From Candidatus Uhrbacteria bacterium (GTDB lineage: Bacteria > Patescibacteriota > Patescibacteriia > UBA9934), in NCBI GenBank assembly GCA_943359325.1, contig CALRHD010000002.1, forward strand, positions 4,629-68,628: a DNA stretch of 64,000 bases, given 5' to 3'. The notes beneath the pieces were generated by a model that worked only from the letters and a program-made list of their open reading frames with translations, made no database searches and was not told the DNA's origin. Positions within the stretch are counted from its first letter, which is position 1. Each line of letters starts with the position of its first letter. A program made the translations under genes and the position numbers. This document shows positions 2,988-33,614 of the stretch, one piece after another.

Positions 2988-3022
2988 GTGGATAAGTTTG
3001 TCCACGACTCAGTTGCGGACAT
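2988..3022 (+). repeat. REP-like palindromic element copy 2 (GTGGATAAGTTTG-GTCCACGACTCAGTTGCGGAC-AT)
   Basis: Read directly. It lies between the RAYT start and the radA stop, in the same orientation as copy 1. Confidence 0.85.
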
Positions 3023-4299
3023 TACTTCAATAACTGATCGATTGTCTTGATCGTTTTTGGCGTAATGGCGTTTTTGAGTCCGAGGCGTTCGGCCTCTTTG
3101 AGGCGGCGTTCGAGGTGGGGAACGGTGCGTACTTCGCCGCCGAGGCCGAGTTCGCCAAAAATAACCGTGTCGTCAGGGATTATTTTGTTTGACATTGCCG
3201 ACATGATCGCTGCGGCAACTGCAAGGTCAGCCGCCTTTTCTTTGACCTGCATGCCACCGACGACGTTGAGGTAGACATCTTGATCACCAACTTTGACGCC
3301 CGCACGTTTATTCACAATCGCGAGGAGCATTTGTAGCCGACTCGCGTCGTAGCCAGACGTGCGGCGCACAGGGTTTGGGAAAAGGCTGCGATCGATGAGT
3401 GCTTGAATTTCGACGAGAAACGGGCGTGAACCTTCCATGATGCAGGTGACAACAGACCCAGGGCAGGGGATGCGTTCGGCGAGAAATCGTGCTGAGGGAT
3501 TTTCTACTGTTACCATGCCATGTTCGGTCATTTCGAATACACCGACGTCGTCCGTTGCACCAAAACGATTTTTGCTACAGCGCAAAATGCGGTACGCCGT
3601 GTCGGCATCGCCTTCGAGTGTGAGAAGTGTGTCAACGAGGTGCTCGAGCGTTTTTGGCCCTGCGATTGACCCCTCTTTTGTGACTTGTCCGATGATGAGC
3701 ACGGGCACATTCGCAGTTTTTGCGTAGCTGATGAGTTCGCTCGTTGCCGCACGGACCGCTGTCGGCGTCCCCGGAAATGCATCGGCGTCCTCGACCATCA
3801 TTGTTTGTATAGAGTCAACAATGAGAATGCTCGGTGACATGGTTTTCGCTGCGGCAATAATACTGCCGATTTCGACGGCTCCCGAAAACACAATTGATTG
3901 CATACCAATACCGAGGCGTTCAAATCGCATACGCACTTGCCCCTCGCTTTCTTCGCCAGAGACGTAGTATGAAGGCGTCGACGACGACATTGCCACAGCA
4001 ATCTGCGCGACGAGCGTCGACTTTCCAATACCTGGTTCGCCTGCCAACAAAACAACAGCACCTGGAACAATGCCGCCACCGAGCACGCGGTCGAGTTCAG
4101 CAATATCTGTGGGGCGGTGAGTAATTTTGGTGAAGTTGGTGTTGTCGAGCGCGATCATCGCTGCGGGTGCAGCTTTTGCAGATGAAGTTTGGCGACCCGG
4201 CGTCGTACCACCTTCTGCAATAGTTCCCCAATTTCCGCATTCGGTGCAACGCCCCTGCCATTTGTTAAATTGACTGTCGCACTTGGTACAAGAAAACAT
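3022..4299 (-). CDS. radA: DNA repair protein RadA/Sms
   Basis: N-terminal C4 zinc finger (CTKC...CTEC) is followed by the Walker A motif GEPGIGKST and the KNRFG motif. The C-terminus is a Lon-protease-like domain. Confidence 0.9.
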   Translation of the reverse strand: MFSCTKCDSQFNKWQGRCTECGNWGTIAEGGTTPGRQTSSAKAAPAAMIALDNTNFTKITHRPTDIAELDRVLGGGIVPGAVVLLAGEPGIGKSTLVAQIAVAMSSSTPSYYVSGEESEGQVRMRFERLGIGMQSIVFSGAVEIGSIIAAAKTMSPSILIVDSIQTMMVEDADAFPGTPTAVRAATSELISYAKTANVPVLIIGQVTKEGSIAGPKTLEHLVDTLLTLEGDADTAYRILRCSKNRFGATDDVGVFEMTEHGMVTVENPSARFLAERIPCPGSVVTCIMEGSRPFLVEIQALIDRSLFPNPVRRTSGYDASRLQMLLAIVNKRAGVKVGDQDVYLNVVGGMQVKEKAADLAVAAAIMSAMSNKIIPDDTVIFGELGLGGEVRTVPHLERRLKEAERLGLKNAITPKTIKTIDQLLK

Positions 4300-4320: not shown

Positions 4321-4356
4321 GTGGATAACTATGTCCTCGACTCAGTTGAGGACACT
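4321..4356 (+). repeat. REP-like element copy 3. It is a variant, GTCCTCGAC-TCA-GTTGAGGAC, in which both stem arms have changed in a compensatory way.
   Basis: Read directly. The flank GTGGATAACTATG is conserved and the stem carries an A>T change paired with a C>A change. It lies between the radA start and the stop of ORF 4355..5812. Confidence 0.8.
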
Positions 4357-5812
4357 ACCGGCACATCGTTGTTGGTCTGACGCTTTCGCTGATGGGCGTG
4401 ACGCAGCAGTGGTTTTTCGCGTCCCATGTTTTGCAGAGCGCCGTCGAGTACACGGTACCGTTTGCGCCGCCAATGCGATAGCTCGAGTCGCCAAACGCCG
4501 TGTTGCACGACGACGACCCTTGCCCTGCGAGTTCAAAGTGCCACGGCTCGTTCGGAATGCGGCAAAACCCATTCGCGAACAGTGTTTGCGTCATGAGGTT
4601 TTGTAGCGTGACGTCGAATTGAAATCCTGTACCCGACCCCTCTGCCCATAAATCGGCAGCGACGTTGTTCGTATGTGTGCAATTGCGTCCGTCGCCATGG
4701 GCAACGAGCCCCGCGATAACTTCGGATTTGCTTATTCCAGAGTACGCATCGGTGAGCGTCCATTTTCCGCTCACTTTGCTTATCACTGTTTTGTCGCTTC
4801 CGTCGACATTACACGTATCAGGACTGCAGTAGCCATTTTTTGCGACACAATTCTCGTAGAAGAGCGTTGCTTGTTTTTGGATGCTACGACTTCCTGACGT
4901 TACACGAATGTTTTTCGCATTTCCAGGATTCAATGCATTACTCGCGGTGTAAAATTTTCCTGCTGCGGCCGTCAATTTCGTGAGGACATCTTTACCGATA
5001 TACGTGTCCCCTGATTTCACACTAACAATGAGATGAGTGCCCCCCCCTCCTACAAGTTGCGTGACATCGTCGCCTTGCACGATAGCAATCGCAGGCATGT
5101 AGTCTGCGAAGTCTTCGAAATCGGCAGTCGCGACGTATTCGATGGTTTTTATTTTGAGAGTTGCGAATTTTACGGTGTGCGGGTCGATGAGAAACGCAAT
5201 AGTATACGCCGACATGAGGAGGACCATGCCCGTTACTGCGTTCACCATACGGGTTTTTGCTTGCTTTACGGCGTCCGCATGACCGCGCGAAAGAATGTAT
5301 TGGAATCCACCGACCATGAGCATGATAATGGCGACGAGTGCCATGGCGACCATGAGAAACCTGTAGAGCGCATCGACATACGATGCGAGGTAGTTTATGT
5401 TCAGATTGCCGTCGGCGTCGTAGGTAAGACCGTTTGAAAAGTCGAGTCCAGGAATGGCGACGTTGAGATTGGGAATAATCGGATTGCGCTTTTCGCCACC
5501 CTCGGTGTTGTCTTCTGTTTCTGCTACTGCCTCTTGACTTGTGATTGTACCCGCACCAACAGGTGCGTCATTCCCTTCGTTGTCCGTGCAGATGAGCGAC
5601 CAGTTGACATTGCCTTTTGTTGCATATGGCGTGCACGCAGTGATGCAGCTCGACATGAGGTTGTTCGCATTTTCTTCGACGGTTCCTTCACCATTCGACA
5701 GGTCTTGATAGACACACGAACAGGTGTATGAATCCTGCATGCAATAAACCGCCGACGCATGCAGCGGTGCGAAAATGAGCAGTGCGGTGATGACGATGAG
5801 AATGCGTTTCAT
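4355..5812 (-). CDS. Secreted, membrane-anchored Cys-rich protein with a C-terminal LAS/M15-type peptidase (VanY-like D,D-carboxypeptidase) domain
   Basis: It has a signal peptide and many Cys residues. A central hairpin of two hydrophobic helices around a charged loop (FLMVAMALVAIIMLMVGGF...RGHADAVKQAKTR...AVTGMVLLMSAYTIAF) resembles TrbC/VirB2-type pilins. The C-terminal NEPWHFEL resembles the EPWH(Y)RYVG motif of M15B peptidases. Its start overlaps dsbA by 4 nt (ATGA). Confidence 0.5.
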   Translation of the reverse strand: MKRILIVITALLIFAPLHASAVYCMQDSYTCSCVYQDLSNGEGTVEENANNLMSSCITACTPYATKGNVNWSLICTDNEGNDAPVGAGTITSQEAVAETEDNTEGGEKRNPIIPNLNVAIPGLDFSNGLTYDADGNLNINYLASYVDALYRFLMVAMALVAIIMLMVGGFQYILSRGHADAVKQAKTRMVNAVTGMVLLMSAYTIAFLIDPHTVKFATLKIKTIEYVATADFEDFADYMPAIAIVQGDDVTQLVGGGGTHLIVSVKSGDTYIGKDVLTKLTAAAGKFYTASNALNPGNAKNIRVTSGSRSIQKQATLFYENCVAKNGYCSPDTCNVDGSDKTVISKVSGKWTLTDAYSGISKSEVIAGLVAHGDGRNCTHTNNVAADLWAEGSGTGFQFDVTLQNLMTQTLFANGFCRIPNEPWHFELAGQGSSSCNTAFGDSSYRIGGANGTVYSTALCKTWDAKNHCCVTPISESVRPTTMCR

Positions 5813-6456
5813 GGTGTGTGGGCTAGCGCGGAGCGAATTGCTCCTTCGATTTCCGATGCACTTACGGCGCCCGTGAAGCGCTCGTTGTTTATGAATATCG
5901 TTGGTGTTGCGGTTATTTGGAGTGTGATGCCTTCGTCGTAGCTTTTTTCAATGAGTGGGAGCGTTTCTTGTTTTTCGGTGCAACGGTTAAACGTGCGTTC
6001 GTTGAGCTTCAGCGATTGCGCGATGGACGTGTAGAGTTCACTCCCAAGTGACGCTTGGTTTGCAAAGAGGTACGAGTGGTACGGGAAAAATGCGTCTTGT
6101 TTTCCTGCGCAGCGCGCGGCTATTGCGGCGTTGAGTGCTTCAGGATGCACCGATGTGTTCGGCATGTCTTTCCACACTAATCGGATTTGATTTGGGAATT
6201 TTGCAATGACGTCGACAAGTGTATTTTCGACGTCTGCACAGGTGCCACATGAATAGTCGCCGAAGCTCACGATGGTGACAGGTGCATCGGCGGCGCCTAC
6301 ACTCGGGTCGGCAATGGTGACGGTTGGCGTGGTGATGAGTGTTGTGCTATCGGTAAATGTCACATGGTCGCCACTACCGAGCGAGAATATGAAGAATACA
6401 AAAATGATTGTGGCGACGAACACGATGGCGATAATTGCGTGCCAAAAATAGCGCAT
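5809..6456 (-). CDS. Membrane-anchored DsbA-like thiol:disulfide oxidoreductase of the thioredoxin fold
   Basis: It has an N-terminal transmembrane helix and a C-x-x-C active site (SCGTCADVEN). The size and layout fit the DsbA/BdbD family. It is translationally coupled to the Cys-rich secreted protein downstream. Confidence 0.55.
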   Translation of the reverse strand: MRYFWHAIIAIVFVATIIFVFFIFSLGSGDHVTFTDSTTLITTPTVTIADPSVGAADAPVTIVSFGDYSCGTCADVENTLVDVIAKFPNQIRLVWKDMPNTSVHPEALNAAIAARCAGKQDAFFPYHSYLFANQASLGSELYTSIAQSLKLNERTFNRCTEKQETLPLIEKSYDEGITLQITATPTIFINNERFTGAVSASEIEGAIRSALAHTP

Positions 6457-6460
6457 AGTG

Positions 6461-7693
6461 TTAGTGAAGTTTCATGGATAATAGTCGTCCTGACGCGTCC
6501 TGGAAATAGAGTGTATTGCCGTTTTCGCTGACAGTGAGGTTGAACATTGCAGTTTCGGCAGCCGCGTATCCGAGTGGCGTTGCTTTGCCGGATGGAAGGT
6601 CGATTTGGTAGAGCGTGTCGGGTGATGTCACTAAACTATGATTGTCGCCAGAGCCATCTGCCACTATTCGTGGCACAGCGCAATAGATCGTTGACGCCGA
6701 TGCGAACGTGCATTTCTCGACCCATGTTTCAGGGCCGAGGTGTAAGCGAATGCCACCGTGACGGTCGCCGCGGCTATCGGTGTACCAAAGCGATGGACGG
6801 TAATTGTTGCTTGCGTCGGAAACCGAGTACAAAATATTTGTGCCGTCGGGCGACCAGATCGCGCTGAAATTTGCACCAACAACGGTGACGCTTCCGACTG
6901 CATCGCCTGTTTGTCCGATGAGGTAGAGTTGGTTTTGGTCGAACGACTGCGTGTAGCCTGTCGCCGAGAATGCAACGACGTTGCCTGATGGAGAAAGATT
7001 GACGTCGACCTTGTCGTCGTTCTCGCCGAGCGCCGCGATGACGTCAGTGTGTGAACCGTCGGTCGCGGTTATGACGAGCGAGCGGTTCGACGCGTCGTTC
7101 CCAATGCTCTTTGTTGCGATCTCGCTGCCATCCTCGCTAAATGAAAAGTCTTCCCAGTGCGACGGGAGCGTCGTTTGCTTTGCCGATATGAAGTCGTACA
7201 CAACATTGCTCCCGTCTGGGAATTCTATAACCGCGGCAGTCGCGTTGTTTGCGATGGTCACGTTCTCGGCGTTCGGAAAACGCGCCTGCGACAACAGCGT
7301 GACGTCGCCATGACTGTTGATTGTGTAAAAATGACCATCGGCAGGGTCGTAATAGGCCAATGTGCCGTCGCGCGTCATTGTGGGACTCACAATTTCTGTA
7401 TTCGTAAGGAGTAGTGTCGCCGTTGCGGCTCCGCCTTCTGCAATTTGCGAAATGGGGAGTGCACCTGTGCCCGTTGTTCCATCTGCCGACGTTGGTGTTT
7501 CGCCTGTCCCTCCCGTTGCGTCGCCTGAACCCGTGAGGTTGCTCGCGGTTTCTTGCTCTTCGGGTGTCGTGGTGACGCTTGGCGCTTTGCGTAAAAATGC
7601 GAAGTAGAGCGCGATGCCAATAAGCACAGCGACACAGAGAAACAATGCAAGGCGGAAGAGTATTTTTATACGGTCAGACATAGATTCAATCAT
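6461..7693 (-). CDS. Membrane-anchored beta-propeller (TolB/PD40-like repeat) protein
   Basis: An N-terminal transmembrane helix is followed by a low-complexity Thr/Gly linker. Repeated WSPDG/SPSG beta-strand motifs are typical of PD40-type propellers. Confidence 0.45.
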   Translation of the reverse strand: MIESMSDRIKILFRLALFLCVAVLIGIALYFAFLRKAPSVTTTPEEQETASNLTGSGDATGGTGETPTSADGTTGTGALPISQIAEGGAATATLLLTNTEIVSPTMTRDGTLAYYDPADGHFYTINSHGDVTLLSQARFPNAENVTIANNATAAVIEFPDGSNVVYDFISAKQTTLPSHWEDFSFSEDGSEIATKSIGNDASNRSLVITATDGSHTDVIAALGENDDKVDVNLSPSGNVVAFSATGYTQSFDQNQLYLIGQTGDAVGSVTVVGANFSAIWSPDGTNILYSVSDASNNYRPSLWYTDSRGDRHGGIRLHLGPETWVEKCTFASASTIYCAVPRIVADGSGDNHSLVTSPDTLYQIDLPSGKATPLGYAAAETAMFNLTVSENGNTLYFQDASGRLLSMKLH

Positions 7694-7702
7694 TGCTCTT
7701 GG

Positions 7703-8452
7703 CTATCTGCCAAATGTGATTTCTGCCCATGCCCGAATGCCAAGCATGGGATTTGTGACAATTTCATAGCCGATAACGATGAACATGACGAATACGCCGA
7801 GGATAAAAAACACCCAGAAATACAAGAAAACGGCGTCGACGAGTTGACCCCAGCCGTGCATGCTTCGAAGATCGAATTTTTGCGGCAACATTCTGCCAAG
7901 CGTGCCGCCGTTGATTTTTTCATTGAACGCGGGGAATATCGTTAACAGTAATTGATACATGCTGCCGAGCCAGCCGAATGCGAGCATGACGCCGCCGTCT
8001 GCGGGCAGCATATCAATCGTACCGCTCCCCTGAAACACGGAACCCCACACGGCTTCGTTTGCGAATTGCTCACCTTCGCTTCGTTCGCTCGCTCCTGTGA
8101 CGGTGACGCTACTACGTCCCGCTACTCGTCTGTTTGCAGGCATCTGAAGTTCATAGCTCGCTTCGTTATCTTCTGACGACCTTGCAGGAAATTCGGGAAG
8201 CCGTTGTCGTGTTGCCGACGCGATGCGTGCACGTTGTTGCGCTGCGGCGAATCGGTTTCCTTGCGGCAGCGTTGCTTCCGCGATCATAAATTTTTGATTG
8301 TTCGCGGGGTACTCTTGATTGTTCGCAGACGCGGGGGCTTCACTAGTTTCTGACAATCGCGCTCTTTGGAGCACCACGCGATTACGCAAAAATTCCCCCC
8401 GTGCAATAGCAGGATCGAACGCGGGGAGTCCTCGTGTTGCGGCCAAAGCCAT
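7703..8452 (-). CDS. Hypothetical membrane protein with transmembrane helices in the C-terminal 100 aa
   Basis: The ORF sits in the same operon. The C-terminus has two or three hydrophobic helices, while the N-terminal half is low complexity, so the true start may be internal. Confidence 0.3.
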   Translation of the reverse strand: MALAATRGLPAFDPAIARGEFLRNRVVLQRARLSETSEAPASANNQEYPANNQKFMIAEATLPQGNRFAAAQQRARIASATRQRLPEFPARSSEDNEASYELQMPANRRVAGRSSVTVTGASERSEGEQFANEAVWGSVFQGSGTIDMLPADGGVMLAFGWLGSMYQLLLTIFPAFNEKINGGTLGRMLPQKFDLRSMHGWGQLVDAVFLYFWVFFILGVFVMFIVIGYEIVTNPMLGIRAWAEITFGR

Positions 8453-8472
8453 ATCGCGTTTCAGTATATCAC

Positions 8473-8496
8473 AAAACGCCCTGCTCAGGCGTTTTG
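8473..8496 (-). terminator. Hairpin AAACGCC-CTGCTCA-GGCGTTT that overlaps the clpC stop and is a possible bidirectional terminator
   Basis: Read directly: a 7-bp stem with T-rich sequence on both sides. Confidence 0.35.
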
Positions 8497-10989
8497 TTTT
8501 ACACGTTTTTTGTGCATGCGCGTTACGCGGAATATTCCATTGCTTTCCGTGACGACAACCTCGCGCGGTAGTTTTGATGTGGTAAGCATGAGGTCGGCAA
8601 TGGGGTGTTCGATGTGTTCTTCAATGATGCGACGAACGTCACGAGCACCGTATTTTTCGGTGACGGTGTGCGCAACGGCGTTGGCGATGTGTTTCGTGGC
8701 GCACAATGTGACGCCAAGTGTGGCAAGGCGTTTCGCAGTATCGGCAAGCGCGATGCGTGCGATGAGGGTGAAGTCATCGAATTCGAGTGGGCGGAATAGG
8801 CAGGTGTGGTCGATACGATTGAGAAGCTCGGGGCGGAAATGGTCTTCGAGGAGCAAACGAATATCGTCGCGGAATTGCGCACTCGATACGGTTTGGTCGC
8901 TCACAAAACCGAGGCCATGTTGGTGGAAGCGTTCGCGCCCTGCATTTGTGGTCATGACGATAACTGCATTGCGGAAAGAGACGCTGCGCCCCGTTGCGTC
9001 GGTCAATACGCCGTCGTCAAGAATTTGGAGGAGCAAGTTATGGACGTCGCCATGTGCTTTTTCGAGTTCATCGAAGAGAATAACCGAGTGAGGGCGTGCG
9101 AGAACGGCATCGGTGAGTTTTGCGCCTTCGCGAAACCCGACGTAGCCCGCAGGAGAGCCGATGAGTTTGCTCACGGAAAAACTTTCTCCGAATTCGGACA
9201 TGTCGAAACGCACGAGCGCGTTCGGGTCGTCGAAGACTTCGGCAGCAATCGCGCGTGCAAGTTCGGTTTTTCCCACGCCCGATGGCCCGACGAAGAGGAA
9301 CGACGCGAGCGGACGTTTGGGCTGCGCCAATCCGAGGCGGGCGCGTTGCAGTGCTGCGGCAACACGAGTCACGGCGTCGTGTTGACCAACAACGCGCGCC
9401 GAAAGTCGCTCGGCAAGCGTACGGAGTGCGGCGGATTCATTCGCGGAAAGTCGTGACACGGGAATGCCGGTCATGTGTGCGACGGCAGCATTGATACGTG
9501 CACGGTCGAGCACAAGCGGTGCGCTCGTTGGTGCCTGTTTCTTGAGCGCGCCGTGTTCTTTTCGGAGTGCAGTCTCTTCGGTTTTGCAGGCAAGTGCTTC
9601 GGAAAAGCGTTCTTCAAAAACGGCCGCAGCTTTTCGCATGCGCAGTGTGTCGAGACATGCGGCAATGTCACGAAGTTGTGCGGCATGTTGCGCATGGCGT
9701 TTACCGTACACTGCTGCCGATCCTGCTTCATCTAAAATGTCGATTGCCTTGTCGGGAAAATGTTTTCCGTGCATGTAGCGTTCAGAAAGTGTGAGCGCAG
9801 CCTCGATCGCGTCTTTCGTAAAACGTACGCCGTGGTACTTTTCGTATGCGGGCTGAATGCCAAAAAGTATCGTGCGCGTTTCGGCGAGTGTTGGTTCGTT
9901 GACGGTAATTTTTTGGAATCGTCGTTCGAGCGCAGCGTCGGGTTCTATTTCTTTTTTATATTCGGCAGGCGTTGTTGCGCCAATGCAGCGCAATTCACCA
10001 CGCGCAAGTGCAGGCTTCAAAATGTTTGCCGCGTCGAGCGATCCCGATGCCGCGCCTGCACCAACCACGGTATGCATTTCGTCGATAAACAAAACGATGT
10101 CGGGATGATCGTAGATTTCGTCCAAGATATGCTGGAGTCGCTGCTCAAAGTCGCCACGATACATCGTTCCCGCGACAAGTGTCGCCATATCGAGGCGGAA
10201 AATGCGTTTGTTTTTGAGCGCGTCAGGAACCTTACCGTCGACGATTGCTTTTGCAAGCCCTTCCACGATCGCGGTTTTACCAACGCCTGTTTCGCCTACA
10301 AGCACAGGATTATTTTTTGTTCGACGTAACAAAACGTGCGCAAGCCGTGCGACTTCGTGTTCGCGACCAATGAGCGGGTCGATGCGTGCGGCTACTTCGC
10401 GTGTCGTTAGTTCGGTTGTAAAAAAGTCGAGCGCAGGAGTTTTCTTCGTTTCCACGTTGCACTCTTTGCATTCGGTGTCGTCGGAGTGCGTGTGCGGTGT
10501 GGTTTCTTCGTCGACGTGAACGTTCGGGAACGACGTCGTCGTGCGAAACACCGCCTGCAAATTTTGTACGAGATTTCTTTCGCGTATGCCGCTGTCGTGG
10601 AAAAATGCACGGATATTTTTCTGTGCGAGCTGCAAAAGTCCTGCGAGCAAGTGTTCGGTGCCGACGTGGTGGTGTTCGTGCATGCTTGCCGTCAACACCG
10701 CTTTTTCTATCGCGGTTTTCGCGTCATTCGACAGGAGCGGCGTTTTGTCATTTACGGTGAGTGGAGAAAATGAAGTCTTTCCTGCAGCCACTTTTGCGAA
10801 TATACGCAATGCCTCTTCCTTCACTCCCGCCTTTGCAAGAACCTCCGCGCCAATACTGCCGCGTTCCGTGCCAAGCGACCACAATAATTCTCGCAGCCCG
10901 ATTTCTTCGCCGCCATGCTCCACGACAAGACACAACGCTCGTGTGAGCACACTTTTTAAGTGCGATGTAAATTTATCCGTCAATTCCAT
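8485..10989 (-). CDS. clpC: Clp/Hsp100 ATPase (ClpC-type ATP-binding chaperone subunit)
   Basis: Clp_N repeats are followed by two AAA+ modules. The Walker A motifs are [14 protein letters not shown] and [15 protein letters not shown], and the signature [10 protein letters not shown] is present. The start is at the Met of MELTDKF, although the track ORF starts at 11070. Confidence 0.85.
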
Positions 10990-11078
10990 ATGTAAATTCT
11001 CTCTACGTCTTGTCGCCAATACAGACTGATGTACTATGTGCATGCTACGTTTTTCAGTCATGACTGTCAAAGGAAATT

Positions 11079-21163: not shown

Positions 21164-21946
21164 ATGTCTCAACCATTGTTCTCGTCCGTAACACTGGACG
21201 ATCCAAAGGGTATCAAGTGTTCTACCATGTTCCGTGAGGTCTATAACGGAATGGAGTTGAATGACGATCGCGCACAGCTCGTTAATGAGCGGGGAGGAGA
21301 GTTCAAGGCAGGAGTGCGCGAGCTTCTTGCACGGCTTTCCGCGGTCGGGAAGATGTTTAACATCACTCACCAGATTGAGCAGCTTATCGCGCTCAATTTC
21401 CAAACAGGGTGCAGCCCGAGCGGCATGAGTGCCGAGGATTATCGCAAGCTCTGGCCAACGTCTGTCGTGCAACCCGTGGAGTACGCGGGTCGTCTCGACC
21501 TACCACTCCTTGTCGATACGACGATCCCGCTCAATCGACTCGTAGTGCTGAACCACAATGTTGTGGAGCACATCAATCTTTTATCCTGTAGGGATATGGT
21601 CAATGCACCATGTCACGCAAGTGGTGCAATGTGTACCCGCTACATTGCGTGGGTGCAGACTCATCGCTGGCTCGGACGAAAGGTTGCCGATGTTCGTAAG
21701 GAGATGGCCGCAGACGAAGTGGGACTCGTGATTGTGGAAGGGCTGCATCTTCCGGGGCAATGCGAATCTCTGCTCCGAAAGCAGGGTGTTGACATCCCTG
21801 GCTCGCGCTGCGGCGAGGCCTACGCGCCGTGCGTCGACTGGTTCGACGATGTTCGGCCGCGCGTTTGCGCCAGCCTCGTCGAGTATGCCAATGCGTTCTA
21901 TGGTTCTGCATCCCGTGGGACTACTGTGGTGCCTGTGACCTGGTAG
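21164..21946 (+). CDS. Hypothetical cytoplasmic protein (260 aa, 12 Cys)
   Basis: It has a strong promoter, a strong Shine-Dalgarno sequence and an intrinsic terminator. I do not recognise any family motif. Confidence 0.6.
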   Translation: MSQPLFSSVTLDDPKGIKCSTMFREVYNGMELNDDRAQLVNERGGEFKAGVRELLARLSAVGKMFNITHQIEQLIALNFQTGCSPSGMSAEDYRKLWPTSVVQPVEYAGRLDLPLLVDTTIPLNRLVVLNHNVVEHINLLSCRDMVNAPCHASGAMCTRYIAWVQTHRWLGRKVADVRKEMAADEVGLVIVEGLHLPGQCESLLRKQGVDIPGSRCGEAYAPCVDWFDDVRPRVCASLVEYANAFYGSASRGTTVVPVTW

Positions 21947-22192: not shown

Positions 22193-23368
22193 ATGGTAAA
22201 AAGCGTGCCCAAAAAGGGTGGGGCAGGGAAGAAGCCGTTATCCCGAAGTTTGCGAATGTATCAACGCATTGCGGTTGCATTTGTTGTAGGAACGCTTGGG
22301 CTTTTGATTGTCGTTCTCTACCTATCCATTTCTCGCGCTACAATTCATATTGTTCCTAAAGCAAAAACCGTCGATGTTACTGTTCCTGTGCATGTTGTGC
22401 CGAATCCGACTGAAGAAGGCGATATGACGGGTGTTGTTGTTGAACAAACGTTTACGAAGGCACAGTCGTTTGCGTTGCCGAGCGAGGGTGGGACGCCTGT
22501 CGAACAAAAGGCGGGTGGTATGGTGACGCTCATTAACAAAACCAACGCACCGCAAACGCTCGTTGCGACAACGCGACTTTTGTCGGAGGAAGGTGTGCTT
22601 TTCCGTATTGATAATTACGTCACTATTCCTGCAAACGGTCAGCTCGACACTACGGTGCATGCCGACGTCACAGGACTTTCGGGCGAAGTGCCGCCTACGC
22701 AGTTCACTATTCCCGGATTGCCCACGTCGCAGCAAAAAGACATTTATGCAGTGAGTGTTGACGCGATGACGGGTGGGGTGAGTTACGTCCGTACATTGTC
22801 GGAACAAGACTTGAACGACGCGGTGACGTCGCTTACCGACAGTATGATTTTGGACAGCAAAGCGACGCTTGCTGCAGGCGTCGATCGTGCGATTTTTCCA
22901 GGCGAAGCATATGTGAGCGACGTTCTTGAGCGTAAAAGTGACACGCAACCCGGAAGCGAGGCGGGGAGTTTTACCGTATCGCTCACTGTGCATGTCGCAG
23001 CGGTGTATTACGACCCTGCGATTCTCACCACCTACGCACAACAAAAACTCGCCGCACAGTTGCCGAGCGAGTACGCTATGGTGACAATGAATACCGAAAG
23101 CATGCAGGTTTCCGTCGACTCTGCTGAAAAGTCGAAAGGTACGGCGACACTTTCGGTGTATCTTGACGGCGTTGGTGCGATTTCGGCAGGCGCAGACGCA
23201 TTTCGCAAAGAGCGTTTCCTTGGCCGTTCGGCACAAGAAGTGATGACGCTGCTCTCTGTTTCGGATGCGATTGCCAGCTCGAGTGTCACTTTCACACCGT
23301 TTTGGCTCAAACGAGTTCCTACGCTTCGTGACCACATCGTTGTTGACATAGAAGAGCCTGCTTCGTAA
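22193..23368 (+). CDS. Hypothetical protein with an N-terminal membrane anchor (391 aa)
   Basis: A basic N-terminus is followed by one transmembrane helix and a large beta-rich, Thr/Val-rich extracytoplasmic domain. Confidence 0.5.
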   Translation: MVKSVPKKGGAGKKPLSRSLRMYQRIAVAFVVGTLGLLIVVLYLSISRATIHIVPKAKTVDVTVPVHVVPNPTEEGDMTGVVVEQTFTKAQSFALPSEGGTPVEQKAGGMVTLINKTNAPQTLVATTRLLSEEGVLFRIDNYVTIPANGQLDTTVHADVTGLSGEVPPTQFTIPGLPTSQQKDIYAVSVDAMTGGVSYVRTLSEQDLNDAVTSLTDSMILDSKATLAAGVDRAIFPGEAYVSDVLERKSDTQPGSEAGSFTVSLTVHVAAVYYDPAILTTYAQQKLAAQLPSEYAMVTMNTESMQVSVDSAEKSKGTATLSVYLDGVGAISAGADAFRKERFLGRSAQEVMTLLSVSDAIASSSVTFTPFWLKRVPTLRDHIVVDIEEPAS

Positions 23369-25147: not shown

Positions 25148-27010
25148 TTACGCCTGTAGTTTTCCGCGTTTTAATTTCGTTTTTCTTTCAGTTTCGAGTC
25201 GTTTAAGTGATGCTTCTGCTGCCTGTTTCATCTTTCTTGTGTACCACCAACGTTCTACAATTCCCGCATTTTTCACGTCCTCTAAACTAAACTTCAATAA
25301 TTTTGGGAATTCTATTTTAAGTTCGTTGTATTGACGAACGAACTCTTTTGCTCCGCCGAAATTGTCGGCCAATCGGCGGAATGAATTCGTTTCCGTAAGC
25401 GCGTTTTTGCGCTCTAAATTTTTGTTGCTTTCGTACGCAGCAGCCCCAATGGGAGTTTTTTCGCCTTCATCAAACCATGTTGACTCAAGATCGACTTTAC
25501 GGTCGGGTGAATATTCCAGGTCGTCTCGACGTCGTTGTGGCTCTATTATTTCTGGTGCGCGATATTGGAGGTCGTCTACAATCTGTTCTTTTTTTAATCG
25601 TTTTGCACCTGCCTTCGAAAGCGCGGGCATTACGATTTTTGGAATTGGCAATACCGCTTTTACTTTTTCCAAAACTGGCTTCTTCCACTTCGGTGTTTCA
25701 GCTGCCGGCCGATCGTCTGCGGACAAAATCTTATTACCGACGCGATATGAGCCGTCGTCAGGGCGAATGACTTTTGCGCGGGACGCTTTCTTCGGGGCGG
25801 GTTCGTCAGCTTCGACTTCCACCGTGACGGGCGTTGGCGTAATAGTCTGTTCCGTAATTTCTTCGCTTTCTGGGAGTTTGAGCTCATCAAGAAGCCGCGC
25901 GACGCCATCTTTTTCATGTTGCGCAAGATCGGGACTCTTCGAAAGCTCGTGCAAATGATCACGCGCTTCGTCAGCGTCGATACGCCCTGTTTCCAGTGCA
26001 CGATGGAGTGAAGATTCGACTTTCGACGGCCGATCTTTTCCTGCGGCAGATTCTGCGAGTTTTGTGAACATTGCTCTTACTGTTTCTCCACCTTCAGAAA
26101 TAAGTAGACTTCGCGATGCCAGAAGTATTTGCTCACGTTCCTGCAATTCAAGAATTCCAAATGGTGCGGCAACGGTATCTTTGTCGACTTTGAGCTTTTC
26201 GATGACATCGTCGCATCGAGCGATGTGTACGTCGAGGTCCTCGAGCGTCATTTGACCGATGTCGAACCCCTTCGTTATCTCGAGCGCAACGAACGGCGAG
26301 AGTTCGCCACGTGCAACGCTGACCACTTCGTTTCCTTCTGTGAGCGCCATGGTTTCCGCCGCTACCATGCGATTGGCAATGTCTTCGTCCTCTTCGATCG
26401 CGTCGACATGAATTTCTCGGAGAAGTCTTTCGTCGTTCGCCTTTATGGCTCGATTGTACATGTCATCGATGCCTTCTGCATCCTGTTTGCGAATTTCGGC
26501 AACGGCATCGAAAAGCAATCGTGCCATGTCGGGCATGTCGTCTACCGAAGCGCTGATCGACGCAATGCGTATTATGTCTTTTTTGTAGCGATCGAGAAAT
26601 GCTTTCTCTGCTTTCGATTCTTCTTTGTCTCCCATGCCTTCGGTTGCTGCAAGCGCGTTATCCCAATGCTCGGCAATGCTTTCGCCGATGTCATTCGTTG
26701 CTGCGCGTTCCTCTATTGCCGCTTCGGAGCGCGTCAACCATGTAACGCTATCGCCGCGCCGCAAATAGAGCGTATCGCCCGTAGCATTGTCGACGACCCA
26801 TTCTTCGTACTGCCCGTCACGGCCGATGCGCTCAACGACACTTCCCTCCTTGTACGTTTCTGCACGACTGGTAACCCAATTTCCCTTTGGCGCGGCCTCG
26901 CGCATTGCTTCTGCCTCGGCGGCGACGTCGATACGCTCGTTGTGCAGCGTTGGTAGCTCGGCCTCTGGTATGTCGTGCTGCAACACTCTTTCTGTGCTTC
27001 GTTTTGCCAT
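25148..27010 (-). CDS. Hypothetical highly charged, acidic protein (620 aa)
   Basis: It has no transmembrane helix and no motif that I recognise. It is Glu/Asp/Lys-rich with predicted long helices. Confidence 0.45.
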   Translation of the reverse strand: MAKRSTERVLQHDIPEAELPTLHNERIDVAAEAEAMREAAPKGNWVTSRAETYKEGSVVERIGRDGQYEEWVVDNATGDTLYLRRGDSVTWLTRSEAAIEERAATNDIGESIAEHWDNALAATEGMGDKEESKAEKAFLDRYKKDIIRIASISASVDDMPDMARLLFDAVAEIRKQDAEGIDDMYNRAIKANDERLLREIHVDAIEEDEDIANRMVAAETMALTEGNEVVSVARGELSPFVALEITKGFDIGQMTLEDLDVHIARCDDVIEKLKVDKDTVAAPFGILELQEREQILLASRSLLISEGGETVRAMFTKLAESAAGKDRPSKVESSLHRALETGRIDADEARDHLHELSKSPDLAQHEKDGVARLLDELKLPESEEITEQTITPTPVTVEVEADEPAPKKASRAKVIRPDDGSYRVGNKILSADDRPAAETPKWKKPVLEKVKAVLPIPKIVMPALSKAGAKRLKKEQIVDDLQYRAPEIIEPQRRRDDLEYSPDRKVDLESTWFDEGEKTPIGAAAYESNKNLERKNALTETNSFRRLADNFGGAKEFVRQYNELKIEFPKLLKFSLEDVKNAGIVERWWYTRKMKQAAEASLKRLETERKTKLKRGKLQA

Positions 27011-27099: not shown

Positions 27100-27711
27100 A
27101 TGTACTTCAATACGGATGCGGAGCGTATTGCAGCGCTTGCACGGAGAGCGCTCGCCCAGCGGGGAATAATTCCTTTGTTGGGTAGAGATGACGATGCGGC
27201 GGAGTCGCTACGACCAGAAGCGCAGTATGTCGTCGACATGTTGAGTTGGCGAGACCCGTGGCATAGGCCACTTCTCGCAGGTTATGCCGCGGCGCTCATG
27301 ACGTACATTTTGAGCGTCAACGAGGAAACGCCGCACGACTTTGGCAGGCTGCAAGTTGTTGCGTGGACGCGGTTTGTTGCGGACTGGCTCGACAGGCACG
27401 AATGCAGCGACGCGCGGTGGGAAGACGTGAAATTCTTACGGCGCATTGCGTGGCAAGAAGAAAACGGGCAGCCGATTGCGAAGAATCTTCTGCTTGAGGC
27501 AGATAGGCGATTACGCGAAACGCAGCGTGCATTGACACCGATATGTCGTTTAGACCGCATTGCACTGTCGAACCACCTCGTGGCGACAGGTGCGGCACGG
27601 AACGGATTTGGATGCAGCATGAGCTACCATGCATTCACCCTAGTGTGGATCGTGATGCACCCGAAGGCAAAAGCGTATTTCCAGAACGTGGCGTTCGGAA
27701 TCGCAGGATAA
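27100..27711 (+). CDS. Hypothetical protein (203 aa)
   Basis: An AGGAGG Shine-Dalgarno sequence lies 6 nt upstream. It is transcribed divergently from the acidic protein gene. Confidence 0.45.
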   Translation: MYFNTDAERIAALARRALAQRGIIPLLGRDDDAAESLRPEAQYVVDMLSWRDPWHRPLLAGYAAALMTYILSVNEETPHDFGRLQVVAWTRFVADWLDRHECSDARWEDVKFLRRIAWQEENGQPIAKNLLLEADRRLRETQRALTPICRLDRIALSNHLVATGAARNGFGCSMSYHAFTLVWIVMHPKAKAYFQNVAFGIAG

Positions 27712-30133: not shown

Positions 30134-30874
30134 TTATGCCTTTTTGGCCGCAATGTACAGTGTGGTGCGGTACACAAGAATGAGCGGCATGACAACGATT
30201 TCGACGACGCGAAGGAGGAGATCCATGGGGACGGGGAGGGGTGCGGTGGGATCGAGGTGTGCGAGGTCGTAGCCGAGGAGGAGGTCGATGCACACGACAG
30301 CGAGGATATAGAGGAGAAGTATGCACACATCAAAGCCCCAGAGGCGGAGGAGCATAGCAAAAAATCGTCCACGGACAAGTTCGCGACTTTGTGCGAACGC
30401 CACAAACACGCGGCGTTTTTCGAGTGTCACAATGATCGGTGCAAACGCAAACCAAATTGCAAAAAGAATTCCGGGAACAATGAGCACGAATCCGAGAAGC
30501 GTGACGACGCCATAGAGGACGCATGACAAAAAAATTGTGAGGAGTACGTCGCGTGCGGTGCTTGGTGACTCGGGAAGCTTGCCGTCAACGAGAATGTGCT
30601 GTGTAGTCATCACGATGTGTGCGTACATCCAAATGCTGATGACAATCGTGATGATTTGCAAGCCGAGATCGAGCGTGTCAACAATGTCGCCGCTCCCAAA
30701 TGTGATGCGCAAAAGGATGCTGAGGACGAGCGGCATCAAAAGCCAGCCCGAATATCCGAGGAAGGTGAAAAAGTGTTTTTGAAAAATGCGGAGACTGGTG
30801 GCGGCGAGGTTACGAAGACTCGGCAGTCCGCCCGCTGGCGGAGGTGCGAGTGGCAACAAGACTTTGGAAGACAT
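30134..30874 (-). CDS. Polytopic membrane protein that is a paralogue of the upstream gene
   Basis: It has 6-7 transmembrane helices. The motif ELVRGRFFAMLLR parallels ALVKGRWWATMLR in the ORF at 30810..31706. Confidence 0.45.
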   Translation of the reverse strand: MSSKVLLPLAPPPAGGLPSLRNLAATSLRIFQKHFFTFLGYSGWLLMPLVLSILLRITFGSGDIVDTLDLGLQIITIVISIWMYAHIVMTTQHILVDGKLPESPSTARDVLLTIFLSCVLYGVVTLLGFVLIVPGILFAIWFAFAPIIVTLEKRRVFVAFAQSRELVRGRFFAMLLRLWGFDVCILLLYILAVVCIDLLLGYDLAHLDPTAPLPVPMDLLLRVVEIVVMPLILVYRTTLYIAAKKA

Positions 30875-31706
30875 AATAATCAGCAATAATGAACACCGGC
30901 GCCGTTACTGCAGCAACGAGTGTTGAGAGAATTTGGCTTATGGCGCCAACGAAAATTTCGAGCGCACTTTGGTCGATAAACTCTGTCGCGGGAACCAGTG
31001 CGGCAGAGAGCACGAACATGAGAAGCGAAATAAGCAGCTGTACGAAAAGAATAATGACGAGGAGCGTGAGTTTCGGCACGAGCACACGAAGCATGGTCGC
31101 CCACCAGCGGCCCTTGACCAGTGCGAATGCGCGGCGAATGCTCGCCACAACACCGCCTTTTTCGAGCATGAGTGAAAGCGGTGCCATGGGGAAGACGACA
31201 ATACAGTATGCGATAAGAATCGCCGATGTGACGCCGCCAAAAAAGAGGAAAAACATGCCAAGCGACGGGAGTACAACGCCGCTGTGTTCCTGTAGAGCAG
31301 AAATGAAAAGCATGCCAACTCCCGGTAGCACGAGTAGACATGCACCGAGTACAAGAATACCGAGCGCAAGACCTTGGAGGAATAGTTTGGCGACAATGTT
31401 TGGAATTTGCGCACGAATACTCGCAGGTTTTTTTCCGACTTCGAATGCGCTGGTTGACAGCACTACGCCGCCAAAAATGCCATACCCAATGCACAGCGCG
31501 AACAGTGCATTGAGGAACATGAGTATGACAACGGCGAGGGTTCCTGCGAATGAGTCAGCAAACAAAGGGAACAGCACCATGCTCACGATAATCAGCGGTA
31601 CGCCGAGCAACATCCACAGCGCAATCCGCATGTAGTCGCCGAAATGTTTTTCGTAGAGGTGAAATGTTTTATCGACGATTTGGCCGATGCTGATGAGTTG
31701 GATCAT
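30810..31706 (-). CDS. Polytopic membrane protein, the tandem paralogue of 30134..30874
   Basis: It has about 8 transmembrane helices and a shared motif. It overlaps the downstream paralogue. Confidence 0.45.
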   Translation of the reverse strand: MIQLISIGQIVDKTFHLYEKHFGDYMRIALWMLLGVPLIIVSMVLFPLFADSFAGTLAVVILMFLNALFALCIGYGIFGGVVLSTSAFEVGKKPASIRAQIPNIVAKLFLQGLALGILVLGACLLVLPGVGMLFISALQEHSGVVLPSLGMFFLFFGGVTSAILIAYCIVVFPMAPLSLMLEKGGVVASIRRAFALVKGRWWATMLRVLVPKLTLLVIILFVQLLISLLMFVLSAALVPATEFIDQSALEIFVGAISQILSTLVAAVTAPVFIIADYYVFQSLVATRTSASGRTAESS

Positions 31707-31754: not shown

Positions 31755-33614
31755 TTGACCGACGGGGTAAGGCGGGTAAGATGCCGATGTATGACAAATG
31801 CATCGCGGTATAGAAAACTTGAGTCGAGCGATCGCAAGGCGACGTTTGCCGTTGCGAACGGTAGCGAAGAAACGCGGCAAGTAGCGTACGGAGACGGCGA
31901 CATGTTGCCGTACCGTTCGTTCGTAGCCGAAGAGGCGTTTTCGCTTGTTGAGCCGTATATTTTGTCGCCCGAGAGCAACATCACTGCCCTCAACATGCAG
32001 AAATTGAGTGGCGTTGCAGGTGCCATGCTTGCACGTCAAAGTCGCATTCAGGGTACTGTCGTTGACGTACTCATGAAGGAATTTTTGGTGACCAGCCCAG
32101 ACGAAGCGGTTGAGTTGGGCGTCGAGATTGGTGATTTGAAACGCGCAAAGCTCGACGGGATTATTGAGCGCATTCTTATTCAGTACGGCGATGACTCGGT
32201 GCAGGAGCTCGAAACCGCAACTGTGCTTTTTAATTCCGTAAGCAATCTTGCGACGAAAGTCATTGAAGACCGTCGGCTTGGTGGGTACATCGAACAGTCG
32301 AGTCGGTATGTGTACTACACGGATCGCGACCCTGTCACAGGACGATGGTGGTATGTGCGCGAGCCGCGGATTATGGCGAGCCGTTTGGGTGGGAGCTATG
32401 TCGTGCTCATGGACAAAGCGTTCGATGTGTATGCCCGGCTTGCAGACGCGTTGACTGCACACTACGAAATCATCAAACCCGTTGACGGCGCGGAATACGC
32501 CGTGCGGCCGAACGATGCAACGAAATATCGGTTGGCGGATTTAACAGACGAAAAAGAAATCAAAGAATTCAAGCGCGTCTATAAGTTTGACCTGAAAACA
32601 AAAGCGTGCGACACGGCGCGCATCGTGTTGCCTGCGTCGACATTGACGAATGTGGCAATGGTTGCGAACGGCCGCACGTTTGAGCATTTGCTCAAGCGAC
32701 TCTACGCAACCGATAATGCAGAGTTTCAGGACATCGCGGAACGGTTACACGCAACGCTCAATAAAGTTATTCCGAAGTATGTGAAGCGTGCGTCGAAAAA
32801 CGGCGAGGCGTACACGAAGGGCGTTGACGCACGAACCGTGACGCAAATTGCGCGCGAATTTCCCGAATTGCTGCAGTTCGTCCGATCGAAGAGCGAAGTT
32901 GAGTGGGTCATAGACCCTGAGTCAGATCGAAGAGTCGAAGAGGTTGTGCAATATTTGGCGACAACGTATTACCCGTTTTGTCGTGTATCGTTCGCAACGA
33001 TCATTTCGACGCTTGCTGCGTGTCCGTACGAACGTCTTGTGTCGCTCGTCAAAGAAATTATCGGCGAGCGCATGACGCGTCGCGATAGGCTCGGTCGTGG
33101 GTTTGAAGCGGGTTATCCGTTTACGTTCGACATTACGGGGAACTTTGGAATTTTTCGTGATTTGCATCGGCATCGTATGCTCACGCAGCAGCGTCAACTG
33201 CTGAACCCACATATTGGTTTTACGGTGCCGCAAGATGTGGAGGACATTGGCATGGGCGACGAAGTGCGAAGCTTGGAGGCAGAAATTCGCGGCTTGTACG
33301 ACGAGCTCGCCAACGAAGTGAGCCACGAGGCGGCGCAGTACTGCGTGTTGTTTGGGCACCATATTCGTTTTACGATGGGCTTTAATTTGCGTGAAGCGCA
33401 GCACTTCCTCGAACTTCGCACTGTGCCGCAGGGGCACCCAGACTACCGTCGCGTGTGCCAAACGATGCACAACATGATCATTCGTCGTACGCCATGGCTT
33501 CATGACACCGGGATTTTTACATTCGTCGATCACAATGACTACCCTTGGAGCCGCGCCGACGCCGAAGCCCGTCAATCGCAAAAACGCATCGCAAAGGGGT
33601 TGACGGAGGAGTAA
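31755..33614 (+). CDS. thyX: FAD-dependent thymidylate synthase ThyX with a tandem duplicated domain, in which the N-terminal copy is degenerate
   Basis: The C-terminal half carries the ThyX signature FRDLHRHRMLTQQRQ. The N-terminal half has a degenerate equivalent, IEDRRLGGYIEQSSRYV. The start is uncertain: Met1, Met13 or Met50. Confidence 0.6.
   Translation: MTDGVRRVRCRCMTNASRYRKLESSDRKATFAVANGSEETRQVAYGDGDMLPYRSFVAEEAFSLVEPYILSPESNITALNMQKLSGVAGAMLARQSRIQGTVVDVLMKEFLVTSPDEAVELGVEIGDLKRAKLDGIIERILIQYGDDSVQELETATVLFNSVSNLATKVIEDRRLGGYIEQSSRYVYYTDRDPVTGRWWYVREPRIMASRLGGSYVVLMDKAFDVYARLADALTAHYEIIKPVDGAEYAVRPNDATKYRLADLTDEKEIKEFKRVYKFDLKTKACDTARIVLPASTLTNVAMVANGRTFEHLLKRLYATDNAEFQDIAERLHATLNKVIPKYVKRASKNGEAYTKGVDARTVTQIAREFPELLQFVRSKSEVEWVIDPESDRRVEEVVQYLATTYYPFCRVSFATIISTLAACPYERLVSLVKEIIGERMTRRDRLGRGFEAGYPFTFDITGNFGIFRDLHRHRMLTQQRQLLNPHIGFTVPQDVEDIGMGDEVRSLEAEIRGLYDELANEVSHEAAQYCVLFGHHIRFTMGFNLREAQHFLELRTVPQGHPDYRRVCQTMHNMIIRRTPWLHDTGIFTFVDHNDYPWSRADAEARQSQKRIAKGLTEE

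Follow-up and report, generated by a model that had tools for sequence, protein, structure and literature searches.

A putative peptidoglycan peptidase joined to a VirB2-type pilin hairpin in a candidate envelope module of Uhrbacteria-like Patescibacteria

VanY and LdcB, which belong to the M15B group of peptidases (DD-/LD-carboxypeptidases), are membrane-anchored extracytoplasmic enzymes, and BdbD of Bacillus subtilis is a thiol-disulfide oxidoreductase that oxidises the pilin-type substrate ComGC. In Patescibacteria, published surveys found VirB2-like pilins near virB4 in 1,135 of 1,948 assemblies, and the type IV secretion system (T4SS) and its pilin array are described as essential to epibiotic growth (PMC10633639, PMC12857230). 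A VirB1-type wall hydrolase is absent from most genomes that carry VirB2-like pilins (PMC12102498, PMC10633639). Here we describe four genes on the minus strand of a 64,000-nucleotide (nt) stretch of a Candidatus Uhrbacteria genome (contig CALRHD010000002.1, positions 4,629 to 68,628; hereafter the window), in which domains of the VanY/LdcB, BdbD, and VirB2 kinds are encoded side by side. The last of the four (gene 4) encodes a divergent M15 family member that carries a VirB2-type hairpin. Taken whole, the statement that its product is a peptidoglycan peptidase stabilised by disulfides, anchored through a pilin module, and tied to the pilin/T4SS apparatus of Patescibacteria has, judged from sequence, an even chance of being right. 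The identities of the domains in the module we hold with high confidence, a peptidoglycan peptidase activity of the gene 4 product appears likely, and the association of the module with T4SSs or pilins could go either way.

Gene 4 (4355-5812, minus strand) encodes 485 amino acids (aa), and its anatomy was taken from hydropathy, a 16-sequence alignment, and an AlphaFold model; all structural evidence given for it consists of predictions built on that alignment. An N-terminal hydrophobic stretch (residues 1-25) spans the signal peptide named in the original prediction, which is of Sec type and covers residues 1-21 (5750-5812, minus), composed of MKR, a hydrophobic stretch, and HASA|VY, with cleavage predicted after HASA by the A-x-A rule. 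The variable N-domain that follows (residues 22-105; 5498-5749, minus), predicted to be extracytoplasmic, has the lowest conservation in the protein (23.9% mean identity) and contains six cysteines (C24, C31, C33, C56, C60, and C75), five of them invariant in the alignment; it is modelled as beta-beta-alpha-beta-beta-alpha with a predicted local distance difference test score (pLDDT) of about 50-80, and a fold search with it returned no significant match. Residues 106-212 (5177-5497, minus) hold a P-x-L-N-V-x-I-P-G-L motif, located within residues 106-143 and invariant in the alignment, together with the VirB2/T4SS_pilin hairpin. A linker at residues 213-262 (5027-5176, minus; 40.5% identity) is mostly of low confidence or disordered, with pLDDT below 50 for residues 210-243, and leads into the LAS/M15 zinc-peptidase core at residues 263-430 (4523-5026, minus), which has five cysteines. 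The protein ends in a small beta-rich subdomain at residues 431-485 (4358-4522, minus) with five further cysteines (436, 460, 469, 470, and 484), whose strands (445-473) reach pLDDT 86-97 in the domain model and 81-91 in the full-length model, and which is shortened in the more distant homologues P0014-P0016. The cysteine count is 16 (3.3%) rather than the approximately 25 first proposed, so that part of the original prediction was too high; the protein is still cysteine-rich, and 13 of the 16 are invariant across the 16 homologues.

Four independent routes agree in assigning the C-terminal domain to the M15/LAS peptidases. Its M15 motifs are S306-x-x-R309-x4-Q314, C378-x-H380-x6-D387, and E422-P-W-H425, the last lying inside the NEPWHFEL sequence that had been reported before and that we located at residues 421-428. 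The first motif reads S306-G-S-R309-SIQK-Q314, with the R and Q invariant, and aligns on SGFRSYDYQ of LdcB, while neither H380-x6-D387 nor E422-P-W-H425 varies among 16 close homologues, and the two align on HxxGxAxD of Ply500 and EPWH of LdcB, respectively. Across 148 sequences of the family, these residues for catalysis and zinc binding (R, Q, H, D, E, and H) are conserved in 90% or more. The predicted structure has the central antiparallel sheet and flanking helices of the Hedgehog/DD-peptidase fold, and its best Foldseek match is VanXYc (E 9e-4). A domain profile run against 1.84 billion cluster representatives retrieved 279 relatives, which at 50% identity puts the family at 279 clusters or more; a Pfam scan of 87 relatives assigned VanY to 36 (best 1.1e-7) and Peptidase_M15 to 29 (best 8e-6). 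When a profile of 26 diverse members was compared with the PDB, only M15 chains were retrieved (Ply500 at 0.0026, LdcB at 0.004, LysB4, YodJ, VanXYc, and VanY), the family motifs fell on SGFRSYDYQ, HNYGVAVD, and EPWH, and the N-terminal half of the profile was best aligned to LdcB. The two folds on which the original prediction depended, M15/LAS in this protein and thioredoxin in gene 3 (below), were thus both recovered, the former by Foldseek and family-profile searches rather than by direct Pfam search of the window protein. Because it is relatives of the window protein, and not the protein itself, that match VanY and Peptidase_M15, its link to curated M15 models is transitive. The domain is probably a divergent, disulfide-rich, and catalytically competent M15 member, with an apparently complete active site in which H380, D387, and H425 would be the zinc ligands, E422 the base, and R309 and Q314 would serve as in VanY and LdcB.

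With VanY and LdcB the gene 4 product shares the motifs SxxRxxxxQ, (S/C)xHxxGxAxD, and ExxH as well as a membrane-tethered arrangement with the catalytic domain predicted on the extracytoplasmic side. The peptidase had originally been called secreted, and the extracytoplasmic location implied by that word stands, but free secretion does not; it is better described as membrane-tethered. It differs from VanY and LdcB in having a VirB2-type two-helix hairpin as anchor instead of a single N-terminal transmembrane (TM) helix, in the 10 cysteines of the domain and the replacement of the motif Ser by Cys, in inserted loops, in an added Cys-rich beta subdomain at the C-terminus and an added Cys-rich domain before the hairpin, in falling under Pfam detection, and in a context free of van-resistance genes. 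The D-Ala-D-Ala dipeptidase VanX (M15D) is soluble and cytoplasmic with a closed dipeptide pocket, whereas the gene 4 domain is predicted to be exported, tethered, and disulfide-rich. Unlike the phage endolysins of M15C (Ply500, LysB4, and the T5 L-Ala-D-Glu peptidase), the gene 4 product is membrane-anchored, is encoded in a core chromosomal operon, and has neither a phage context nor a cell-wall-binding domain. A role in vancomycin resistance was considered and rejected, since no neighbour is of vanH, vanA, or vanX type. The same LAS domain also stands at the end of a 2,393-aa open reading frame (ORF) with 68 cysteines (loci L026, L027, and L029, 3434-10615), beside which no propeller or DsbA neighbours were detected, and further long LAS-bearing ORFs occur in L033, L044, and L049.

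Residues 149-206 match the Pfam family T4SS_pilin (PF18895) with 32.4 bits, above its gathering score of 26.6. This bears out the TrbC/VirB2-like hydrophobic hairpin noted originally, and the region also weakly matches TrbC/VirB2 and the pilin-like family Mbov_0395 of a Mycoplasma integrative and conjugative element. Its helices, TM1 at 144-176 and TM2 at 189-210, are joined by the basic loop SRGHADAVKQAKTR. With this loop on the cytoplasmic side, both domains flanking the hairpin would lie outside the cell, which is consistent with their 16 cysteines. The hairpin region has the highest identity of the protein (67.5%, compared with 50.4% for the catalytic core), which argues against a merely passive anchor, and the T4SS_pilin domain is kept in 62 of the 87 relatives scanned; no second hairpin of this type was found elsewhere in the window. 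VirB2/TrbC and the patescibacterial VirB2-like pilins likewise consist of a signal peptide and two hydrophobic helices with a short basic loop, but their precursors are about 100-130 aa long and are essentially the hairpin, whereas in the gene 4 product an 85-aa domain precedes and a 270-aa region follows it, both with Cys-rich globular parts and one of them enzymatic by prediction. Given its 485-aa length and these flanking domains, the gene 4 product is a pilin-domain fusion and not a canonical pilin. We know of no polymerising VirB2 pilin with globular domains at both ends of the hairpin.

The strongest functional lead, one absent from the original prediction, is the recurrent linkage of this gene to T4SS genes and pilin arrays. 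Relatives of gene 4 occur in pilin arrays and beside virB4, as described for patescibacterial pilins (PMC12102498), whereas the window itself has no virB4. At one locus (L019), genes for a PrgI-like protein, a TraC-like protein, VirB4, and a conserved 189-aa protein are followed directly by the module, all on one strand, and the PrgI/TraC-like/VirB4 block lies directly upstream on the same strand in L068, L079, L081, and L087 as well, giving at least five T4SS-linked module loci. The latter four have, inserted ahead of the propeller gene, a gene for a second pilin-hairpin protein of 366-536 aa, the large Cys-rich C-terminal domain of which is not a LAS peptidase (L079 5362-6921; L068 3310-4920; L081 6648-7835; L087 6598-7698). 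An Uhrbacteria genome (L001) has the same T4SS block about 5.5 kb away, past RecG. At seven or more other loci the pilin-peptidase gene adjoins arrays of VirB2-like pilins of 94-135 aa. In one of our loci (L065), a free 135-aa pilin (9036-9443) and the adjoining 300-aa pilin-peptidase (9491-10393) are near-identical over their first ~130 residues, which shows that a genuine pilin module acquired the peptidase domain; on comparison of the two sequences, the pair indicates a recent duplication with domain fusion.

Each of the domains is of a known kind, but the combination of hairpin, M15 domain, and Cys-rich head with a propeller and a DsbA-like oxidase is undescribed as far as the searched literature shows. 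Term searches turned up neither M15 nor VanY nor a pilin fusion in PMC12102498 and neither carboxypeptidase nor peptidoglycan hydrolase in PMC10633639, and the passages of PMC12857230 that deal with Patescibacteria mention neither a wall hydrolase nor a carboxypeptidase. The nearest functional parallels are the T4SS-linked peptidoglycan hydrolases VirB1, PrgK, and TraG of pIP501, for which the proposed role, local opening of the wall for the T4SS, is alike and the genes of which, as with gene 4 relatives in several loci, sit inside the T4SS cluster. This is functional analogy and not homology: VirB1, PrgK, and TraG are lytic transglycosylases or CHAP amidases that act on glycan or amide bonds, whereas gene 4 would encode a zinc M15 peptidase fused to a pilin module. 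A protein of about 185 aa, consisting of a TM helix at the N-terminus followed by a ~150-aa domain, is encoded after VirB4 in every such locus (L001 17690-18241; L019 4771-5340; L079 4262-4873; L081 5356-5916; L087 5348-5917), and it could be the VirB8-like component reported missing in Patescibacteria.

Gene 4 is the last of four co-oriented minus-strand ORFs (7703-8452, 6461-7693, 5809-6456, and 4355-5812, from the ORF listing and a direct reading of the junctions). Genes 1 and 2 are spaced by +9 nt and genes 2 and 3 by +4 nt, whereas genes 3 and 4 share the four letters ATGA at 5809-5812, matching the range of -4 to +9 nt given originally. From this layout the four genes would be transcribed together as one envelope module of an Uhrbacteria-like patescibacterial genome, with all four products predicted to be membrane proteins and three of them to bear extracytoplasmic domains. 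Neighbourhoods were counted over 72 non-redundant loci, with loci that have enough flank as denominators (for ClpC, those with at least 7 kb). The propeller gene is adjacent to the peptidase gene in 34/38 loci, so this pair is the core of the module; DsbA lies upstream within 1.5 kb in 28/38 and directly adjoins in 24/38, RadA is downstream in 35/50, and ClpC is upstream in 18/25. Fourteen species-representative genomes share the order ClpC, a variable membrane gene, propeller, DsbA, pilin-peptidase, RadA, and RecG (the last on the opposite strand), and in many of them the 4-nt overlap between the DsbA and peptidase genes recurs. As order and tight spacing are found again in these genomes and in dozens of metagenome contigs, the arrangement is not due to chance. 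What had been presented as a four-gene operon therefore holds as a tight unit, but not as a free-standing island, the module being embedded in a conserved ClpC-module-RadA-RecG block. Its place between core genes is the same in over 30 genomes, for which reason we rejected an origin as a mobile element or as cargo.

Named homologues come from Candidatus Uhrbacteria, Magasanikbacteria, or a "Patescibacteria group", and every named family member that we looked up is labelled "hypothetical protein". Seven loci (L004, L006, L009-L011, L014, and L015) have record titles reading "uncultured Gammaproteobacteria bacterium" although their genes and gene order are clearly patescibacterial; the title is apparently a stopgap or an error. 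Most loci also share, further upstream, genes for LemA and an M48 peptidase in synteny, and one locus (L018) has the order LemA-M48-module-RecG without ClpC or RadA.

Gene 3 (5809-6456, minus) encodes a 215-aa membrane-anchored DsbA/BdbD-like thiol-disulfide oxidoreductase, which matches Thioredoxin_4 (E 5.2e-27; 95.5 bits, cut-off 23.2) and DSBA (E 1.5e-8; 35.1 bits, cut-off 25.6) and has B. subtilis BdbD as its best solved relative (3eu3, E 3.4e-12), with further DsbA-like chains also matching. This agrees with the membrane-anchored CxxC thioredoxin-fold protein described originally. The active-site motif is C70-G-T-C73, the cis-Pro segment ATPTIF aligns on ATPTIY of BdbD, and hydropathy gives a single N-terminal TM helix (residues 1-32) ahead of the catalytic domain, from which an extracytoplasmic topology is expected. 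The product thereby has the features of a DsbA-type protein, namely a thioredoxin fold with an inserted helical domain, CxxC and cis-Pro, and an extracytoplasmic location. A membrane anchor, CxxC, and a Thr-cisPro segment are shared with BdbD and with actinobacterial MdbA; gene 3 is unlike both in being translationally coupled to a single very Cys-rich putative substrate, and no partner gene for DsbB, BdbC, or VKOR was found among about 35 window ORFs scanned. An MdbA-like oxidoreductase family is enriched in the candidate phyla radiation, with which gene 3 agrees, and MdbA oxidises pilin-type substrates (Meheust et al., 10.1101/335083). The ATGA start/stop overlap with gene 4, from which translational coupling had been proposed, is real, and a DsbA gene adjoins in 24 of 38 related loci. 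The further proposal that gene 3 is a dedicated disulfide catalyst for gene 4 fared less well in its word "dedicated": several relatives with 8-21 cysteines have no adjacent DsbA gene, so DsbA is a frequent but not obligatory part of the module, and the DsbA-like protein could be the general oxidase of the cell.

Gene 2 (6461-7693, minus; 410 aa) encodes a TM anchor (residues 6-38) that a linker rich in Ser, Thr, and Gly joins to a beta-propeller part of PD40/tricorn type, about 320 aa long. The beta-propeller proposed at this position finds support in PD40 matches of 8 of 14 gene 2 orthologues (best 4.5e-7), though the window protein alone is weakly propeller-like, with 18.4 bits under a cut-off of 20.9. 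Precomputed Pfam annotation of relatives gives Tricorn_N and PD40, and the family profile weakly matches an S9-peptidase propeller and TolB. Two cysteines, C328 and C338, are invariant, which makes the propeller a second plausible DsbA substrate. PD40 blades are common to TolB, tricorn, and S9-peptidase propellers and gene 2, but its product has a TM anchor, no TolB N-domain, and no attached peptidase, and its host lineage is monoderm without Tol-Pal. An identity as TolB was rejected, the NCBIfam TolB model scoring 16.8 bits against a cut-off of 343, the N-terminus being a TM anchor with a low-complexity linker, and tol/pal genes not being nearby.

Gene 1 (7703-8452, minus) encodes a 249-aa membrane protein without cysteines, for which no family was found in Pfam or NCBIfam. 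Hydropathy shows a hydrophilic low-complexity N-terminus of about 150 aa, a weak hydrophobic segment at 155-173, and a strong hydrophobic stretch at 200-239. The gene at this position in relatives has the same architecture (249-319 aa) with just 11-30% identity, and by this comparison gene 1 is a fast-evolving membrane protein.

Put together, these parts suggest the following mechanism. The gene 4 product would be exported and arranged in the order Sec signal, variable 6-Cys domain, VirB2/T4SS_pilin hairpin, and C-terminal LAS/M15 domain outside the cell. The BdbD/DsbA-like oxidase, made from the overlapping upstream cistron, would form up to eight disulfides in it and one in the propeller, and the PD40 propeller, as its most constant neighbour, would be its partner, acting as scaffold, substrate gate, or regulator. 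The peptidase would cleave stem peptides of peptidoglycan near the membrane, as a carboxypeptidase or an endopeptidase, and its target may be its own wall or, as the original prediction also allowed, that of a host. It would do so inside the patescibacterial VirB2-like pilin/T4SS apparatus, either as a hairpin-anchored accessory or co-assembled with small pilins, and possibly as a wall-opening factor; because these T4SSs are mostly without a VirB1 homologue, gene 4 may supply that activity.

Several observations weigh against this proposal. Pfam and NCBIfam hold no significant M15 model for the window protein, its sole M15 signal being DdpX at E 0.087, and PDB searches with the single sequence and with the close-family profile retrieve no M15 chain, only the diverse profile doing so. 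No T4SS gene was found in the 64-kb window by tblastn/phmmer with VirB4, TraC-like, PrgI, and the 183-aa proteins of L001 and L019, and a Pfam scan of 30 other window ORFs gave housekeeping genes and no T4SS, VKOR, or DsbB. The contig stops 4.6 kb left of the window, inside a serine-recombinase element, so that it is relatives and not this genome that bear on the T4SS link. Upstream of the module, 18 of 25 loci have LemA, M48, and ClpC rather than VirB4, and perhaps no more than about three lineages account for the T4SS-linked loci. When the profile of gene 1 was compared with that of its positional counterpart in those loci, just 17 low-complexity columns matched, which does not demonstrate homology.

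The main rival is a housekeeping role, in which a membrane-tethered carboxypeptidase of VanY/LdcB type trims the nascent peptidoglycan of its own cell, the hairpin is merely an anchor, the DsbA is a general oxidase, and the occasional closeness to T4SS genes is left over from an older gene order. It gains from the single-copy gene and its core neighbourhood (ClpC, RadA, RecG, PheST, DnaE, and RodA/FtsW), which is conserved across 14 species, from the prevalence of ClpC over VirB4 just noted, from the LdcB-like N-terminal half of the profile, and from VanY and LdcB being anchored extracytoplasmic enzymes themselves. What such a role leaves unaccounted for is the conservation of the hairpin and its preceding motif above the catalytic core, the retention of the T4SS_pilin domain in 62 of 87 relatives, the small pilin arrays adjoining the gene together with the recent duplication that led from pilin to pilin-peptidase, and the same-strand contiguity with VirB4 blocks in several lineages. 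On balance we regard it as possible but rather unlikely.

A more far-reaching version of the T4SS-linked mechanism makes the gene 4 product a polymerising, tip, or base subunit of a patescibacterial VirB2-type pilus, with the propeller and DsbA as dedicated assembly factors; we consider this unlikely. If it were true, ultra-small monoderms would build a T4SS pilus that displays a disulfide-locked zinc peptidase and a hypervariable binding domain, and that could enzymatically breach the wall of a host or their own.

In a related alternative, the hairpin would polymerise with small VirB2-like pilins, and the N-domain and peptidase, carried on the outside or the tip of the T4SS pilus, would digest host peptidoglycan on contact. 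Both pilin termini point outward in F-type pili, which would allow terminal domains to be displayed, and the highly conserved hairpin, the almost identical module in the free pilin of L065 with pilin arrays adjoining, and the hypervariable N-domain (23.9%) with conserved cysteines, as in a surface or host-facing part, are all as this would have it, as is the need for T4SS and pilins in epibiotic growth (PMC10633639). Globular domains of 85-270 aa are, however, borne by no known VirB2 pilin, and their packing in a helical filament is sterically doubtful; the 50-aa linker at the membrane would suit an enzyme working on the wall of its own cell just as well; and an epibiont life on walled hosts is unsupported for Uhrbacteria. 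Such a weapon against host walls is accordingly improbable in our view. A non-catalytic LAS domain, whether a pseudo-enzyme or, as in Hedgehog, a module for binding or adhesion, is very improbable because the six catalytic residues, which a pseudo-enzyme would be expected to lose, are retained in at least 90% of the 148 members.

The T4SS-linked mechanism bears on a gap in the understanding of Patescibacteria, whose epibiotic life depends on a T4SS with VirB2-like pilins and most of whose genomes with such pilins show no VirB1-type wall hydrolase. The widespread pilin-M15 fusion family is a concrete candidate for this absent wall cutter, or for the opening of host walls, and its pilin-type hairpin would be a new mode of anchoring an M15 enzyme. 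The module would also offer a natural model for oxidative folding, pairing a disulfide-heavy exported enzyme with a DsbA-like oxidase in a minimal-genome monoderm. Even if the role were one of housekeeping, four conserved core genes now called "hypothetical" in a large uncultured clade would gain an annotation.

Upstream, the module adjoins the gene for a co-oriented ClpC-type AAA+ chaperone (8485-11070, minus). A stem-loop lies over the ClpC stop codon (8471-8497, minus; -16.2 kcal/mol, z = -4.15, with 0/200 shuffles folding equally well), and an extended -10-like box, TGaTATACT, is found at 8463-8471, about 10 nt ahead of the gene 1 ATG. Together they may mark a module boundary or a promoter, the promoter reading being inferred only, so that the module may have its own transcription start. 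A hairpin between gene 4 and radA folds no better than shuffles. Downstream, RadA (3022-4299, minus) is co-oriented, with a gap of 55 nt to gene 4; in many relatives it starts 1-4 nt past the peptidase gene, which makes a shared transcript possible. RadA may be taken as context, with no functional link to the module claimed. The clpC and radA genes adjoin each other in the ctsR-clpC-radA-disA operon of Bacillus, and in the window the module is inserted between clpC (8485-11070) and radA (3022-4299).

Between RecG and RadA, the window has a Y1_Tnp (IS200/IS605-type) transposase gene (2242-2985, minus), which syntenic relatives such as L001 and L003 lack at this position. Directly left of the window (L092 3757-4287) lies the gene for a 176-aa membrane protein of unassigned function, which keeps its place on the far side of RecG in more than 20 related loci. 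Past this gene and RecG, the contig end (L092 1976-3304) holds a serine recombinase with Resolvase/Recombinase domains and two unannotated genes; a recombinase near-identical to the L092 copy is also present in L062 and L066, and the element may be a mobile one that interrupts synteny where L001 carries the T4SS block. Seven window ORFs of 203-620 aa, located amid housekeeping genes, have no Pfam family at E 1e-3: 25148-27010 (minus), 39332-41083 (plus), 35329-36552 (minus), 22193-23368 (plus), 21164-21946 (plus), 30810-31706 (minus), and 27100-27711 (plus). A ThyX-like ORF at 31755-33614 (plus) is unusually long, with 619 aa and two stretches that match Thy1.

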